DNA of 62,964 nucleotides, the filler included, from Reticulomyxa filosa (Eukaryota > Protista > Foraminifera), in NCBI GenBank assembly GCA_000512085.1. It is 22 parts of 22 records of this genome, joined end to end, with 100 filler letters (N's around TTAATTAATTAA, not from the genome) between each part and the next. Parts side by side here need not be neighbours in the genome. Positions count along the whole stretch, not along the records: positions 30,815 to 33,054 come from ASPP01024681.1; 21 more parts are not named here. One strand, written 5' to 3'. Both the position numbers and the translations under genes were made by a program. The notes beneath the pieces are model-generated. The model did no database searches, was not told where the DNA came from, and worked only from the letters and a program-made list of their open reading frames with translations. This document shows positions 12,475-46,900 of the stretch, piece after piece; positions within the stretch are counted from its first letter, which is position 1, and every line of letters begins with the position of its first letter.

Positions 12475-12944
12475 CATTCGAATATGGGATATTGAAACAA
12501 CCAAACAATTCAATATATTCAAAGGACATGAAAGTGTAGTGATAAGTGTAAAATATGGATTAAATGAATTATCAAATACAATATTATCTGGATCAGATGA
12601 TAAAAGTGTTCGTATGTGGGATATTCGATCTGGTGAACAAATTCAATTATTTGCTGGACATGCAGATAGTGTGTACACTGCTGAGTATCCGCCATTTGTA
12701 ATAAAAAATAGTATTGGTAATTCAAATGTGATATGTTCTGGATCAATTGATAATACAATTCGTTTTTGGGATATTCGATCAAATAAGAATGAATTGTATA
12801 TCATCAAAGGAGATAATGAAGACGATGGAATATTGTGTCTTAAATTTATTGTGTTGAAAAAGAAAAACAAAAACAAAGAATGTTAAATATGATTTGAATT
12901 TGTGTTATGGTTCACGCAAAGGCCCCATTCGTGTTTGGGGATAA
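12475..12944 (+). pseudogene. WD40-repeat protein of an expanded family, partial, frameshift near 3' end
   Basis: GH..SGSDDKSVRMWD, GH..SGSIDNTIRFWD; the terminal GPIRVWG* lies in a shifted frame. Close paralogue at 43404-43931. Confidence 0.8.
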
Positions 12945-13355
12945 TTTACTGTTTTGTCGAATGATAAATGAAGTGGTTTTTTTGAAGAGTTTGATTAAAA
13001 GAAAAGTAAAGTGATATTAAACTTGTTGATTTGATTGAATGCAAGCATTGAAAGACATGTTTTATCTTACTTTGTTGTTTAAAAAATTAAAAAAGCTTTG
13101 TTCAATGTTTTTTGAAGAATTGAAAATCACAATAAATAAAAATTGTATCTAAATATCAAAATAAATTGCAAAAGATTTTAAGCATTGATATCATTGAAAA
13201 CAAAGACGTTGAAAAAATATTTTTCTAAAAATCCTTTATGTTTATGGTAACAAGATATTTTAATGGAGGAAAAAAGAATGACAAATCAAAAAGCTTTACA
13301 ATATGTTCATCCCCAAACATAAATTGGGCCTTTGATTGAACAATCTTTTTTTGAT

Positions 13356-30630: not shown

Positions 30631-31577
30631 CTTTTATTGTTATTATTATTATTATTATGACAATAACAAAAATTAACAAGTATTTTAATGTATCCACATA
30701 TACATATACATATANNNNNNNNNNNNNNNNNNNNNNNNNNNNNNNNNNNNNNNNNNNNTTAATTAATTAANNNNNNNNNNNNNNNNNNNNNNNNNNNNNN
30801 NNNNNNNNNNNNNNAAAAATATAATTTTTTAATTATTAAGTTATTTTTTTCTTAAGCTCACTTTATAAAATAATGCAAATTATATATGAAAATTATTTAA
30901 AGTATTCTACAAATTATACAATATAAATAACTATTTTTCTAAATATTACTAAAATAAAAAAACTATATGTATACATTATCTGAATCCTATGTTTTTATTT
31001 ATAGTAAAATCTGTAACATAAAAGAATTTTTAAGGATCTGTATATAACTTGTTATAATGATATATACTTGGTTTTCTACGACAAAGACAAGAGAATGCTC
31101 GAATGCAACCGAAAGACATTTATTAATTGTATATTTTGAATAATGCCGAATGTGAAAGATATTTAAAGAGAATATTAACAAATTTTTTTTCTCTTGTGTC
31201 AAATTAGTATATATTCGCATTACAATTGTCACTATTATTAGTTCAATCTTGTTCCGTTTACACCATCCAATAAAATATAATTCAATATCATTTATATATC
31301 ATCATTGTCATGCATGTATTTGTATAATAAAAAATAAATCTTTTTTACTTTTTTTGTGATTTGCTCAATCTTAGTGATACTTCTGGAAAGGGAAGAATTA
31401 TTATAAACAAAGTATCGTACAAAGTGATTTACAAGCGACAAACAAGACGACGTACTAAGTGACATACAAAGCGACTAACAATGTAAATCACAAACGGACA
31501 AAATGATAAACAAATTGATTATCAACAAAATAAAAAAAACGAAATTTGAGTGTAATGAAACAAGAAGATCTTATCAA

Positions 31578-32597
31578 GTGACAATGAATATATTGACAAT
31601 GATGAAAGATATATACCAAGTGATGAAGAGTATGTTGACAATGATGAAAGTGGTAATGAACAGATTGACGAACAAATTGAAAAAGTTAAAAAATAAAATT
31701 TTCGACTGCAAGCAAAAAATTTGTTTTTAACATATCCACAATGTACGTTACAACATGAAGAAGCGATTGAAATATTGGAAAAAAAACTTCCAATCAATGA
31801 ATATTTGATCTGTATAAAATCATACAAAAAGGACGACACCTGCATTGCTATATTAATTGTAAAACGTTCAGCACATAGACTATGTTTGAATAGATTTCAA
31901 GTAAATTATCAAAGTTGCAGCAACTTATCAGCAGTTAAAAAATACTGTAGTAAGTAAAAAAACTACATAACAAACATAACTGATTTTGCTATAACGAAAC
32001 GATCAGAAAATTAGCTATATAATGATATGTAGATAGCGCAATTAATATAGTAATAAATGATCGGTATTAGCTATAGATTACTTAAGAGATAGCTTACGTA
32101 TATTGCAAAGTATAAAAAGACTGTCAAAAAGTAATAGTAAAATAACTAGAAATTATAAATTCAAACTGTAAATGGAATATCAAATTGTAACAGATCAAAA
32201 CATGTGTATGGTTACATTGAAAAACTAACAATGTCAAAACACAGTTTGCAATATCTCTTTTTGAAAAACCATTATTAGTACGTCATATCGATCAGTTAAA
32301 AAAATTGGATAGTTCATATGACGGCATTGTGTTTAACGATATGAATTTTTCAAAATGGACAATAGAAGAGCAAATTTATATAGTAGAAACTACAGCAATT
32401 AACGTAAAACATGGACACGTTGAAATAAAAAAGGACTTCCAAGAGTATTTACAAGCAATAATACTATTTTCAAAAATGACGCATCAATTAAAAAAAGAAG
32501 ATTAAGAGACATTAGTGAAAACGAATTAGAAAATAGCAACAGTTGTGAAGTTCCTGATTCAGTTTTTGAAAATGAAGACCAATATTTAATGCAATAA
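31578..32597 (+). mobile_element. rep: endogenous CRESS-DNA virus/plasmid-type Rep pseudogene (HUH endonuclease + SF3 helicase)
   Basis: Motif I FRLQAKNLFLTYPQC (31700-31744); motif II GRHLHCYI in a shifted frame (31831-31854); motif III YCSK (31943-31954); decayed Walker A WLH*KTNNVKT (from 32209); Walker B IVFND; motif C PRVFTSN (to 32459); Arg-finger-like SIKKRR. Confidence 0.9.
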
Positions 32598-32842
32598 AAG
32601 AAAAAACACAAACAACTTCAACTAATAACTATTTTTTTTTTAAGCTTTTGCATTAAGAGAATGTGAATATATCTGACTATTCATTGCTTTGTCATTTACT
32701 GACAATGACAAAAATAGGCTATTGCTTTTTCAACAACTTTAAATTTAGAAATTTGTCCAACAGTAATACACAAATTTTATTCGATCATATACAGCACAAT
32801 CCGCAACTTTATTCATAGAATTAAAGAAATTAATTGTAACTG

Positions 32843-33054
32843 CAGTATGTTGCAAAGAAAACTGAGTGCCTAAAACGATATCTTATGATGATAATTGATT
32901 TTCTACATGAAAAATCAACATTTAGACCTAATTTTTTTTATTTTAAAAAATATCTACAAATCTTGTAGTTTTTAAATATGATATTGGTTTTTTAATGACT
33001 TTTTTTTTTGTTGGGTGAAATCACCATTCTTTCAAATGATTTTTGAAAATTCTG
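32843..33054 (+). repeat. dispersed repeat, probable Tc1/mariner-type transposon or MITE terminus (copy 1)
   Basis: About 210 bp highly similar to 40114-40320; starts CAGTATGTTGCAAAGAAAACTG and runs to the contig end. Confidence 0.7.
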
Positions 33055-35496: not shown

Positions 35497-37760
35497 CCGA
35501 TGTATTCGTATGCTCGATCGCCATCAATCGATATTTCATGACAACTTCTATGCTATTTTCTTCATCGCCTTCCACTTTTTCGTCAGTTTAGTCGCTGCAG
35601 CAATCACTACACCATAATGTCGACATCTTTTTCATCAGTCTTCTTTTACTTTCTTCTTGGCAAGCTTGCTTTTATGTTCTGGTGGCACCAAGGTCTAGAT
35701 TATTTGCTATTGATCTGGGATAATCTTGTCCCACTGTTCCAGTGTTACCATATAATGGACGTCTTCCAACTACGAAATTTGTCCAATCTCTTCGCCATTG
35801 TGATGACAGACACGCCTTGATCTTGGATAAAGCTTGCTATCAAAAATGCTCGCATCATCGCAACATATCCCATTTGACAATGTTTGAATTGGCGATCCAA
35901 TGGTTCTTTTCTTCGTTATGGACGTATTCTTTGTTGATATTCTTTCTTCCTTTCTTGCGTGCGATGGTTGAACGCGATTTTTGATTGCGCCAACGGTACC
36001 TATGACTTTACAATTCAAAACTGATTCTTTGAATCATACTCAAACAAACACAAATTAACGGCACACACTTTATTTTTCACCAAGTGCTAAGATAATGCGG
36101 CGAATACAAAGTATTGATTTTCATCCAACACGTTGCCTGTAGTCCATAGTCGAACAATCGCCAATTATCTTTACCAAATTGTCTCCTGGATCGATAAACA
36201 CAAGGAACATGACTCTCGCAGCGATAGAGTTAGAAAATGCAGCCAGCGCTCTCTCTATTCACATATCATCAATACAAATGCCCCGCAAGCTCAAGCTTCA
36301 AACCCCGAAATCGCAAATGTGGGCACGCATACGATTATCGCTTCTTGGTTCAAGTAGGACACGCCGAATACTATGGTGAGCACCCAAGCAATAGTTGGTT
36401 GGGCGACAACGTTTGGAAAAAAATTGTTACTGGAAACTTGGCATTGTTCAACGCATTTTGTGAAAAACCTGAAAGTGATGCAGCGCTATTACAACGCGTC
36501 AGTTTCACGTGAGTAATCGTTGCCTGGATGATGGGAAAAAAAATTGAACGCTTTCAAAATTTGATTGTGGTGATAGCGTCGTGTCCTGACAAAATGGACA
36601 TTGCTGCATTTGCTCAGCATTTTCTATTGGGTGGACAATACGGGAAGTTAGTCTACGCCCGTTAGTGGCGAATTTGCGCGTTTCTGATATCCACTAAATT
36701 GGACCAATCACACGATTATCCCATGTAATGGTTTGCTCGAGCGCATTGTGTATTAGTTTTTTTGACAACGTCCGTGCTCTGTTCTTCCTCGCCTTCCGCT
36801 TCTTCTGTTAATCCAGTCGCTGCTGCTGTTGTCACTTTGCGCGATTCACAATCTTCTTGTTTTTATATTCTATCGCAAGATCCAGATGCCCGCGATTGAT
36901 TTGAGAGAATCTGTCCAACCATTTCTCCATATCGCATGTTTTCAATATAAATTCCAGCTGTTATTGTCGCCCTTGTGATGATAGCACACTTTGGCCTTGT
37001 CGAATGGAAGTATTTTCAATACACCCAACGCCTGGATTGGTGATCTAAGTATGAATCAATATTTTATTTTTTCATGATTGGACGTATTCGTTGTTATTAT
37101 TCCCTTTCTTGTGTAGCTTGGTTCAACGTATGTTTGAGTATGCCAAAGGTCCTACGCGCTTCAAAATTCAAACTCACGTCGACTTGTGTGCAAACGATAC
37201 AAAGCGACCAACGTTTCTTCGGGTCTGGAATAATGCAACGAAAAAAGAGTACTGTGTGTCATCCAACGAGTCTCTAGCATGTTCATGATCGATCCCGAGA
37301 CAATTCACAAAGATAATCGTCGCTTATTTGACAAACGAAATGCAAGCGACTTTTGCAGCGATAATTACATCAATGCTAAGTGTCTATCTCGATCGCACGC
37401 TTCTTCACATCAGCACACTCAGACGAAATCCAAAGTTGCGCATACGCGCACGTATACTATAGTTTCGATAGGAGCGACCAGTCTACTCGATTGTTGTGCG
37501 TCCAAAAGTTTGATCATTTTTCCACAACAATTTAGCTCCACCTTTGTCAGCGCTCTTTGATGCTTTGACAATAATAATATCAATAGGACTCTTTTGCCCT
37601 AACTTAGGCATAAGTCTTTCAATGCTTCCGATTGTCACTACCACTCTAGTCCACCATTTCCACTTTGCACGTTTAAAGATATTTACTAACTTCACATAGC
37701 GCGCCAAAGTCTCCAATCGCATGAAGAGCAATTCCAAACAAACTCAACAAACTATTTTTT
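35497..37760 (-). pseudogene. decayed coding-like region of unknown family
   Basis: Exon-like GC content with protein-like stretches broken by many stops in all frames; strand inferred, family not recognised. Confidence 0.3.
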
Positions 37761-39041: not shown

Positions 39042-40011
39042 CTACTGCAAAGCGAACAATGATAGTTCTTTTTGTTCATCGACTGAAGTCGACGATTCAC
39101 ACAACGGATGTGTAGAATATTGTGGCATGATTACTTTGCGTATTTGTTTACTGAAATTACACAGACTCTGGTGCAAGGTGAATGAAGTAAAAACCACCAT
39201 ATCACCAATCTTTGGTGTCAATTTTTGCACTCAATCTTGTAATCCTGCAGTAGTTTCAATGTTGCTATATGCTTTACCACATTTTGGGTATAAATTATCA
39301 TGTTTCGACAAATTGTTTGGTACGTTCCTATCAAACGCTTTCCCATTTTCAAACGGCAACATGAACAAAGACCCATTCTCCTAAAGCACTTACGTCCAAA
39401 ACATATGAAATAAGTCTCTCTTCCATCTCACTACTTTATGGAGAGACAGAGCCACCTCTTCTTTTTTTTTAAGAAGGCGGTAAAAACAAAAATTAAAATA
39501 AAAACTTTAGTGATATGGTCCAATGGAATCCACACATTAATGTATAAAAAAGGTTCACTCAGGTATTCACTATCCTTTTGTCAAAGTTCGCCACCACAAT
39601 TATCCATAAATTGCGATTATTCTTGTGTTTAAGGGTTAGATACAAAACAAAAAAAAGATGCGATGACAATAAAAGTAACTTGATGCCATCAAAAAGCAGA
39701 GTCTGTTGAATTAGAGGGTTTCACAATATATTGTTCATTCAGCAAATACATTTTTTTTGCTTTGGTCAGTTGGCATAATATCGATTTCATCCATCCACCT
39801 GTTTCATATTGTTATCGGATATATTTGTAGCATGGCCTCATTGTGTTCTTAAGTGATAACAAACAGAGATATAAACAGTATCAAAAAATGTTACCGAGAA
39901 GGAAGTCTGAACAACAGGCTTTTCCGAAAGTTTGGAGGCAGGAAAATCTGATGTGATAAGTTGGGTCCTTGCAGTTGTGTACTCCGAACTTTTATACCAT
40001 CCACTTTTCAT
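39042..40011 (-). pseudogene. phytanoyl-CoA dioxygenase (PhyH) family, intron-containing, with stops and frameshifts
   Basis: LNEQYIVKP..WHQ, INVWIPLD, ENGSL, GDMVVFTSFTLHQS..N.SKQIRKV; in-frame TGA just before VQKL (about 39232). Confidence 0.75.
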
Positions 40012-40113: not shown

Positions 40114-40339
40114 CAGTAGGTTGCAAAGAAAACTGAACGTCTAAAACATATCTTATGATGATAATTGATTTTCTCAATGAAAAATCAACATTTAGACCTA
40201 CTTTTTTTTTTAAAAATATCTACAAGTCTTGTAGTTTTTAAATATGATGTTGATTTTTTAATAACTTTTTTTTTTGTTGGATGAAATCAACATTATTTCA
40301 AATGATTTTTGAAATTTTGCGAGAATGCGTATCATTTGC
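40114..40339 (+). repeat. dispersed repeat, probable Tc1/mariner-type transposon or MITE terminus (copy 2)
   Basis: TA|CAGTAGGTTGCAAAGAAAACTG start; similar to 32843-33054; ends at a contig break. Confidence 0.7.
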
Positions 40340-43403: not shown

Positions 43404-43931
43404 AACAATGATAATAAAATAAATAATATTGGTGTGATTGGTGGAAATGGATATACAATTTGTTCTGGATCATATCATTCGAATATGGGGTATTGAAACA
43501 ACCAAACAATTCAATGTATTCAAAGGACATAAACATTGGATTGTGAGTATAAAACATGGATCAAATGAATTGTTAAATACAGTATTATCTGGATCATTTG
43601 ATAAAAGTGTTCGTTTGTGAGATATTCGATCTGGTCAACAAATTCAAGTGTTCAATGGACATAAGAAAGGAGTATGGTCTGTTGAATATTCACCATTTGT
43701 AATAAAGAATAGTATTTGTAATTCAAATGTGATATGTTCTGGAGCATATGATAATACAATTCGTTTTTGGGATATTCGATCAAATAAGAATGAATTGTGT
43801 ATGATCAAAGGAGATGATGGAATACCATGTCTTAGATTTATTGTATTGAAAAAGAAAAGGAGACAAAGAATGTCAACAATTGGAATTTGTGTTATGGTTC
43901 ATGGAAAGGTCACGTTCGTATTTGGGGATAA
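43404..43931 (+). pseudogene. WD40-repeat family pseudogene
   Basis: Paralogue of 12475-12944; TGA replaces the Trp of a WD at 43618; 3' frameshift. Confidence 0.85.
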
Positions 43932-46900
43932 TTACTTTTTTGTTGAACAAAAAATGAAAGTGTTTTTGTTTGAAAATTTGATTAAAAGAAAATTAAGATG
44001 ATAGTAAACTTGTTTGATTTGACTGAGCACACACTAAAAGATGTGTTTTATCTCACTTTGAAAAAACTGCGTTGAATGTTTTTTAAAGAATTGAAAAGCA
44101 TAATAAATGAAACTGCGCTTTGAAAAGAATTAGATTGTATTTTTGTGATCTTATAAAACTTTATTCAAATCAATAGTGAATCATTACAGATGGAACATCA
44201 ACAATATAAGAATATTATTAAAAGATGATAAATTTATGACTTTGATGAAATGATTTCTGAAAATATTAAGCTATTTAACTATAATATTCAACTTAGACTA
44301 AAGCATTTAAAGAAATGGAAATTCTATATAAATATTCTAATTACATAATGACAGAGTTGATAAGCTTTCATTTGGCATTGCATGAACACACTTTTGATAT
44401 CAAGTACTTATTCAAAATTGAATTTGATAAGATTATGACGGATCAATAGTTTAGATATGTGTTAAGCAAAACAATTTACAAAATTCATTTAACACTGCAC
44501 ATTCAATTTTTTAATTTAAATAAATATGTTATTTCATTGAATGATTGGAAGTGTTTCTTTTTTTTACATAAACATAAATGAGCTTAGCTTTTGTTGTGAG
44601 CCAAATAAAGAGTAAATCAGTTGGCTAATGAAGAGAGTAATTTGTTTTGAGAATATATTGAAAATTATCAAACTATGAACAAATATTTGTAAATGTTTCT
44701 ACTTTTCTATGTTCAACCCTTTTTTGTCACTTGTTTTGTTTCCACAATGACATAATAAGCAAAGTGTGAATTGTGCAAAACATTAAATAAACTTTCAAAT
44801 ATTTTAAATCTACATCCTGTTGTAATTTAATCAATTGAATTAGCGAAATAATGCAAAGCAGATATATTCTTCCAGATATCATATTTTACAATATGCTTTT
44901 ACATTATTTGGATATGTTGAATAAATTTGCTTTATAAAAAGTGTTTAATGAGTTTTAAGTTCAGTGAGAGTTTTTTAATTCTCACTTGCAAACTTAAAGC
45001 GCTTTTTCGTAAAGTGAAAAAAATAGTAATGAGAACAATTGTAATGTTGTACCAATCTAAAAGAAAAAGATTGAACTTGTAAAGTCAATATTTGAAGAAT
45101 TTTTTTGCTGATAAAGAAAACTTGGTTTCCAATTTTTGTAGTTAATGTGATTTGGAATAAGAATAAGTTTTAGTTGAAAATCAAATCACTAATTTTTTTT
45201 ATTGACACAACCTGGTGGAAAAATTTGATTTTTGAAAATGATCGTGTTTTTTATTGGCCTTTATCCCAAGTTTTTCTGAGAATATAAGAAGGTGGACTTT
45301 ATCAGTTACCACAAAAAGAAAAAAAAAACTGGTCAAGCTAATTTGCAATATTTAATCTAAGCCTTGGTCCAACGTTTGGTAAGAAAAAAAAACGCAAAAT
45401 AGTGTTTATTATAAAAAGTAAAATATTTTATTAACAAATTCATTTTTATAGGTAAATACTATGACATAAGTATTAGTCAAGAACGCAATAACTATATATG
45501 GAGTAATTGCAGCCCAATTAGTTAAATACGTCCAAGTGACAAAGTAAATCTAGAAATCGTTTTGGTTTTTTATTATATTTACGAATTGTTTAAAAAATTT
45601 GAATATTTTATTGATTTTTGAAAATTTTAGAGAAAAAGTTGACAATAGTGACTGTGTAGTACCATGAAATTTGACAACATTTTTTAAAGCATTTTCAGAA
45701 AGTGATAGATGAGTATATATTTTTAAAAAATAAAAAAAATTATATATGATATTTTATTTTGTATTACTGTAATGAGCAATGACTCAAGAATTAAGNNNNN
45801 NNNNNNNNNNNNNNNNNNNNNNNNNNNNNNNNNNNNNNNTTAATTAATTAANNNNNNNNNNNNNNNNNNNNNNNNNNNNNNNNNNNNNNNNNNNNAATAA
45901 AATTATAAAACTCTTTTTGTCTGAGTGAAATTTTCTTTTGTGTCTATTGGATCGATTAACTATTCAAGTCTTTCCAAAAAAAAAATAGATAAATAAAATT
46001 TGGATGAACAGATTATTTTGATAAAATTGTTATGAAATAAATTTTGAATAAAACAATTAAAATATCTGTTAAATATGATTTTGTTTTTATAAATGGGGAA
46101 TATAGTTTTCTTTTTTTAAACACAAAAAGTCAATTATTATTACTGTTTAACATGTTTACATTTGCAAGAGGGAAATTCTCACTCTAAACTATTTCTGGAC
46201 CTTAAACTCTTTAACTCCTTTTTATCTAAAATTTCAATTACAATGTGCTTCTTCCTCTTCTAAGAAAAGAGAGTTCCCATTAATAGCAGAAAGTCAAAAA
46301 CAAAGATTATATATCTAAGCAAGAAAAAGAAAAAACGTTTGAATCATTTGTTTATAATCAAATTATTGTCATTGAACAACATACAATAACAAAGCAATTT
46401 AAGTATAAAGAAAGTAATAACAATTCTCTTTTTGAGAAAATATAGACAATCTTGGCTAAGTAAAATCATTTATATCATCTTCCAAATTTAAAAGATCACT
46501 TAAAGAATATCAGAAGAAAAATAAGAATACAAAAAATTAATCAAACTGTAATTCAAAAGATCAATGCAATTATAAAAAAAAAAAATTAAAACAAAATCAT
46601 CTTTTACTGAAATTACATATTAATTCAAAGAAAACTTTTTATTCCAAAAAAAAAAATGATAATTTAATTAATCATTACAGCTATTTATTGATTAGCAGTT
46701 GATATAATTACAAACTTGTTGAAAATTATATTATGTTTATTTTTCATTATGTGTCAGATATCTGTTAATCGAATTATGTAATCATATCTACTGTGAGAAA
46801 CTTGCAAACATCGAATCCTCTGTTGATGTAGTAATGTAGATATCCCTTTTGTTCTTATGTTTACTGATAAATCAAAAAGTTACTGAATATTGAAAGACTA

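Follow-up and report, generated by a model that had tools for sequence, protein, structure and literature searches.

The window analyzed here, a stretch of 62,964 nt made up of joined pieces of the Reticulomyxa filosa genome assembly, carries a Rep pseudogene at positions 31408 to 32579 (plus strand, as for all features below unless stated) that is homologous to residues 48 to 516 of an intact paralog from the same species, ETO15557.1 (P0001). A frameshift-tolerant alignment to this paralog, in which 280 of 370 aligned codons are identical, revealed 6 in-frame stops (31476, 31694, 31955, 32020, 32023, and 32218) and 11 frameshifts (near 31433, 31536, 31615, 31817, 31824, 31861, 32007, 32066, 32167, 32208, and 32426), 3 of them in the N-terminal low-complexity stretch, which is aligned with less certainty. 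Several in-frame deletions are present as well. The preliminary description of this locus had placed the fossil at 31578 to 32597; Rep sequence does occupy that interval, but its borders need to be redrawn, since homology runs from about 31408 to 32579.

All Rep motifs quoted in that description were confirmed in the right order, distributed over three plus-strand frames. RCR motif I (31724 to 31744) has kept 7 of 7 residues of the intact paralog, RCR motif II, the HUH motif (31837 to 31854), 6 of 6 in a frame that differs from that of motifs I and III, and RCR motif III, with the catalytic Tyr (YxxK; 31943 to 31954), 3 of 4. The GRS-like stretch at 31877 to 31912 (7 of 12 residues) is assigned by its position between motifs II and III, with supplementary material of PMC6668415 as a guide. 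In the helicase, Walker A (32218 to 32241) is broken by one stop and two substitutions, Walker B (32326 to 32340) has lost one acidic residue, and 8 codons have been deleted after the stretch of SF3 motif C and the arginine finger (32445 to 32498; 5 of 5 and 3 of 4 residues). The damage thus falls on Walker A, Walker B, and the region of the arginine finger and spares motifs I, II, and C. Set against the intact paralog, Walker A differs at 3 of its 8 positions, where the preliminary description had counted two single changes.

At the N terminus, a degenerate array with a 12-nt period (31408 to 31499) matches the four-residue repeats of the disordered N-terminal extension of the intact paralog, so that this repeat-rich extension is partly present in the window copy too; the array may be a coding repeat or an iteron-like array. 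A 42-nt duplication with a 21-nt period (31572 to 31650) is an insertion relative to the intact paralog.

A profile of 25 relatives, with no Reticulomyxa row, gave significant matches in the six frames of the window only at 31679 to 32525 (independent E values 2e-30, 4e-26, and 2e-5), the next-best match having an E value of 0.96. In Pfam, Gemini_AL1 matched the first Rep piece above its cut-off (E 2.5e-8). The other four pieces had no relevant match in Pfam, those of the helicase having none at all; the assignment to SF3 rests on the motifs and on the predicted fold of the intact paralog. The window copy is a real fossil of an HUH and SF3 Rep.

The intact paralog and its relatives

ETO15557.1 (UniProt X6MQ48, 'rep [Reticulomyxa filosa]') is an intact protein of 516 aa, and the helicase piece of the fossil found it as one protein among 36 candidates, at 79% identity. 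Its predicted structure is confident for residues 201 to 490 and disordered before them. Structures matched by the model are a full CRESS Rep, the nuclease domains of geminiviruses, and three SF3 helicases, those of AAV Rep, papillomavirus E1, and SV40 T, with TYLCV and WDV Rep as the closest structural matches of the nuclease; in Pfam the intact paralog has neither a Gemini_AL1_M nor a helicase match. The two copies are alike in the aligned codons, in part of the N-terminal extension, and in their clade, whereas ETO15557.1 is intact on another contig and the window copy is broken and unannotated in the databases searched. A partial paralog, ETO05831.1 (RFI_31564), is frameshifted and lies on a contig of 6,928 nt. 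All three R. filosa copies fall into a single clade (FastTree 1.0, UFBoot 100), and a short-fragment search of low sensitivity gave no further named R. filosa match among 12. A 170-aa fragment of this Rep type (P0241) is labeled Shewanella sp. and is possibly a contaminant of that Shewanella assembly.

With ETO15557.1 as the query, one search returned 89 proteins and a wider one 3,664 at E 0.001. Its closest relatives are environmental Reps, 45 to 53% identical, on contigs of 1.56 to 2.16 kb; among the 21 top proteins, those with a named cellular source were two from R. filosa and the genomic Reps of Smittium. Seven divergent Smittium Reps (P0024, P0091, P0097, P0123, P0133, P0150, and P0232) come from three species, on contigs of 3.5 to 33 kb, and are good material for probing a transposon lifestyle. 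Two members of the P0004 cluster lie on contigs of equal length, 1,556 nt, a size compatible with a closed circle that has no room for a capsid gene beside the Rep. Viral contigs scanned singly with P0001, P0003, and P0009 yielded no relative, and scans of viral contigs aimed at the close group yielded no member of it, the nearest being 36 to 39% identical. Among 542 candidate stretches from a scan of 185,579 prokaryote genomes there was likewise no relative. A Walker A pattern scan gave one match (L134:1-1554), in an RNA-virus polymerase, which we attribute to chance. From our own reading, we take this locus to encode a mitovirus-like RNA polymerase, with one in-frame TGA.

The supplement of PMC6668415 (Kazlauskas et al. 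2019) lists ETO15557.1 in its 'P. pulchra-like' cluster of 12 Reps, together with three red-algal plasmid Reps and eight other cellular accessions. In the main text and supplementary files 6, 7, and 9 of that study, the P. pulchra plasmids are nested inside CRESSV6, with the GRS motif and arginine finger retained; the main text treats the group as plasmids and names Reticulomyxa 0 times. In a figure legend, the Replitron preprint (10.1101/2022.12.15.520654) names R. filosa and Smittium mucronatum in the same group. The intact twin has kept the GRS-like stretch and the arginine finger of this cluster, whereas both are decayed in the window copy, which belongs to one clade with the listed member at a support of 100. 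The group has been described as plasmids; the window copy is a decayed genomic fossil, incapable of replication. Since the intact twin was already in the published cluster, the host link is not new.

In our trees, which hold neither a P. pulchra Rep nor a named reference of CRESSV6 (presumably the Geplanaviridae), the R. filosa copies, the close environmental Reps, the Smittium Reps, and P0026/L046 group together with an SH-like support of 0.993 in 120 rows. The R. filosa/Smittium/L046 grouping has a UFBoot of 47 in 54 rows and an SH-aLRT of 88.6 with a UFBoot of 82 in a 32-row tree made up without the geminivirus outgroup, the frameshifted RFI_31564, P0134, and other rows; a nuclease-only tree did not recover it. 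Because the supports range from 47 to 99 and the nuclease-only tree fails, these sequences make the group plausible, not firm, and the Smittium members on the published list, OLY79389.1 and OLY79699.1, likewise join the R. filosa Reps with supports of only 47 to 99.

As had been proposed, this Rep of a foraminiferan belongs on the geminivirus-like, GRS-bearing side and is kin to algal plasmid Reps. The likeness to Geminiviridae and Genomoviridae lies in the Gemini_AL1 nuclease domain and the structural matches to TYLCV and WDV Rep. However, identity to the first row of the geminivirus profile is about 25%, the branch is long, and two geminivirus traits, Gemini_AL1_M and an Asn replacing the arginine finger, are absent, the arginine finger being kept in the intact twin. 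Phytoplasma pCRESS9 plasmids are 30 to 34% identical, over the nuclease only (6 records). The suggested kinship to geminiviruses and phytoplasma plasmids is thus not a close one.

Decay and genomic setting

With conserved sites defined strictly, as the same residue in at least 80% of the 25 relatives, the window copy is changed at 11 of 54 conserved and 35 of 120 variable sites (p 0.27). In three functional relatives, 0 to 5 of 58 conserved sites are changed against 106 to 113 of 130 to 133 variable ones, a contrast that is somewhat inflated because the same three helped to define conservation. The copy has decayed without purifying selection, with a slight sparing at a looser threshold of 60% (15 of 91 conserved against 35 of 120 variable sites changed, p 0.03), which suggests that part of the divergence arose under selection. 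Base changes were inferred for 62 assignable cases among 90, with 38 from GC to AT against 15 from AT to GC, and the GC content of the decayed copy is 0.279, against 0.35 to 0.48 in six related environmental loci. Homopolymer sequencing error was rejected as the main cause, since only 1 of the 11 frameshifts lies beside a run of at least five identical bases and 90 residue changes accompany them. This pattern points to slow decay in a cellular genome and to neither an active replicon nor sequencing noise.

The fossil lies alone on an assembly piece of 2,240 nt (30815 to 33054; GC 0.253) that is bounded by N-linkers on both sides, so its neighbors in the window are not its genomic neighbors. 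No host gene was recognized on this piece, Rfam gave nothing inside it, and its dinucleotide distance is the second highest among the 22 segments. Just 260 nt beyond the end of the Rep, a dispersed noncoding repeat of 209 nt (32843 to 33051) is 90% identical to 40114 to 40317 (plus strand; E 1e-76), close to the end of a Rep-free 4.8-kb segment with a composition typical of the window; from sequence, the repeat may be a host repeat or an end of the element. The same 4.8-kb segment holds a broken PhyH-like (phytanoyl-CoA dioxygenase) fragment (39045 to 39377, minus strand; Atlas score 0.95, mostly bacterial clusters) with no match in Pfam.

The nonanucleotide origin in a stem-loop that is typical of CRESS viruses was not found on the segment, nor were terminal repeats. 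Two candidate origins were discarded: a hairpin 3' of the Rep (32688 to 32712, a perfect 9-bp stem) has no nonanucleotide, and such a stem occurs in 7 of 40 resampled sequences, while a nonanucleotide match at 30941 has no stable stem (z 0.35).

Other pieces of the window carry dynein, tubulin, WD40, kelch, and peptidase genes, which makes the assembly eukaryotic, and WD40 or tubulin genes also lie on other low-GC segments. Two low-GC WD40 gene pieces (12475 to 13141 and 43476 to 44112), 81% identical over 672 nt, appear from their sequences to belong to an expanded, partly decayed family. The 2.3 kb from 35497 to 37760 lack a long ORF, and Pfam matched nothing in the three minus frames there; the interval resembles decayed DNA, either coding or repetitive. 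Three microsatellite-driven miRNA matches of Rfam on the segment next to that of the fossil are below cut-off.

The near-even decay, together with the recurrence of the 209-nt repeat on another segment, favors true integration. It is very probable that the fossil is host-borne. Integration is likely, though it is not flanking host genes that demonstrate it. Against it weigh the lack of a host gene on the short piece, the atypical dinucleotide profile, and the practice of the EVE screen described in PMC10193959, which drops contigs shorter than 4 kb.

Origin of the element

The reading that we favor, with a probability of about 0.5, is that the window copy is the fossil of a small capsid-less circular replicon of the 'P. 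pulchra-like' group, likely residing in the R. filosa nuclear genome. CRESS Reps in general nick a hairpin origin, unwind the DNA as a ring helicase, and re-join unit circles. The ancestral Rep would have acted in this way on its own circle, and a copy may have entered the chromosome through the nicking-joining activity of the Rep or through host repair. The three R. filosa copies would go back to a single invading lineage, which either integrated several times or was duplicated afterwards; the window copy would then have lost function and decayed with an AT bias, and is probably inert now, while its intact twin could have been inserted recently or could still replicate as an episome. The three origins named in the preliminary description, virus, plasmid, or transposon, are all still live.

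The segment carrying the fossil was compared with 217 non-Rep ORFs, taken from 119 of the first 130 loci, and with 15 profiles made of these ORFs. No capsid was detected beyond what shuffled sequences gave, so the earlier statement that no capsid gene is visible stands for these 2,240 nt and does not extend past so short a segment, in which a capsid both divergent and decayed would be missed. The best tblastn match for a capsid remnant (E 0.044 over 18 residues) was rejected, and the single profile of the 15 that beat all 30 shuffles did so at 1.8 bits and was taken as noise. The element could nevertheless derive from a capsid-bearing CRESS virus, CRESSV6-like, of which only the Rep was integrated or has survived, or whose capsid is too divergent to be seen, an origin that we regard as rather unlikely. 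Circles of 2.0 to 2.7 kb, ambisense and with related Reps, were indeed found; a second ORF of at least 200 aa is present in 47 of the 48 circular loci that match the Rep well, a count that includes redundant loci, although some of these ORFs may be shadows, and 4 of 14 second ORFs tested match coat families weakly (E 0.003 to 0.03). The nearest virus with a second ORF (L001) is 41% identical to the intact twin and thus closer to it than the Rep-only circle L046 described below, at 31%. In the EVE sets given in PMC10193959, Rep-like elements outnumber Cap-like ones 145 to 38, and the Atlas look-alikes of the Rep are Cressdnaviricota clusters. Yet CRESSV6 viruses encode a capsid, and no trace of one was found on either flank of the window copy, where the shared repeat follows so closely; on the 2,232-nt contig of the intact twin, only about 680 nt are left over for anything else; and the scans of viral contigs turned up no member of the close group. 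The only circular locus of the 48 with no second 200-aa ORF, L046, is a 1,978-nt circle with a Rep alone, and it alone among the loci compared, a set that leaves out the nine closest environmental relatives, groups with the Reps of R. filosa and Smittium. At about 464 it has a TAGTATTAC hairpin; tandem repeats of 59 nt and an 11-nt iteron-like array (652 to 725) are present as well. L046 (1-2077) looks like an undescribed relative of red-algal plasmids, although it is a single distant example, 31% identical to ETO15557.1. Three contigs of the closest environmental relatives (2.06 to 2.16 kb) are long enough to hold a capsid gene.

The Rep could also belong to a transposon family of foraminiferans and gut fungi that keeps an SF3 helicase and moves by peel-and-paste or rolling-circle transposition, which seems to us quite improbable. 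Like Replitrons and Helitrons, it is an HUH Rep with several copies in a eukaryotic genome; the three R. filosa copies are of very different ages, the seven Smittium proteins lie on contigs of up to 33 kb, long N-terminal extensions are shared by R. filosa and two Smittium copies, and the flank repeat, being found also apart from a Rep, could be a non-autonomous end. However, only three R. filosa copies are visible, with none added by the short-fragment search, and the segment has neither terminal repeats nor a significant hairpin. Replitron transposases, moreover, are defined by a Rep with no fused helicase and Helitrons have a Y2 Rep with an SF1 helicase, whereas the R. filosa Rep is Y1 with SF3 and no termini were found; its close environmental relatives, on 1.56- to 2.16-kb contigs, resemble small circles. 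In a version that is similarly doubtful, 'P. pulchra-like' Reps would be capsid-less replicons that shuttle between circle and chromosome and multiply there, a further class of Rep transposons, distinct from Replitrons in keeping SF3. It is no more probable that such shuttling left copies, some live and some dead, in a foraminiferan and in the gut fungi of insects, with the 209-nt repeat as a non-autonomous end. Finally, the piece might not be foraminiferan nuclear DNA at all, coming instead from an organelle or from an organism that was co-cultured or served as food, with the species label on all three copies accidental. It is a short AT-rich piece of aberrant dinucleotide composition with no host gene, and a related CRESS lineage is reported to replicate in oomycete mitochondria (10.64898/2026.04.22.720165). 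This origin is very unlikely, given 17 disabling breaks that would not be expected in a free replicon, a flank repeat that recurs on a segment of window-typical composition, WD40 or tubulin genes on other low-GC segments, a partial copy on a 6.9-kb contig, and no relative among the prokaryote genomes scanned.

Host range and lifestyle of the Rep group

Broad surveys of endogenous CRESS elements have reportedly been made (Liu 2011; Zhao, Lavington and Duffy 2021) and may include this copy. In the literature searched, with subscription papers outside it, there was no description of the decayed copy or of a foraminiferan CRESS fossil, and only PMC6668415 and the Replitron preprint, in the sections cited above, were found to name the R. 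filosa Rep; the portions of PMC11945456, PMC8780604, PMC6186406, and PMC13689118 covered by the search contain nothing on this element. CRESS Rep fossils in protists are established as host evidence, according to the relevant sections of PMC7493932 and PMC10193959. The endogenous elements of Entamoeba, Giardia, Polymyxa, Chromera, and oomycetes are likewise Rep fossils in protist genomes, but they belong to other Rep lineages and several include capsid genes.

Taken by itself, an intact Rep on a contig of 2.2 kb could be a contaminant. Its near-neutrally decayed twin is therefore good evidence that the Rep lineage really entered a foraminiferan genome. The proposed link of an environmental CRESS lineage to a host is supported, though not as a novelty, because the intact paralog had been published before; what is new is the decayed copy, its near-even decay, and the shared flank repeat, and the host link already in print is now firmer. 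Environmental Reps that have no known host and are about 50% identical may thereby be tied, as a testable guess, to rhizarian-type hosts. The finding also raises the question of whether the 'P. pulchra-like' group is capsid-less across algae, fungi, and protists, and whether it may be transposing in their genomes.
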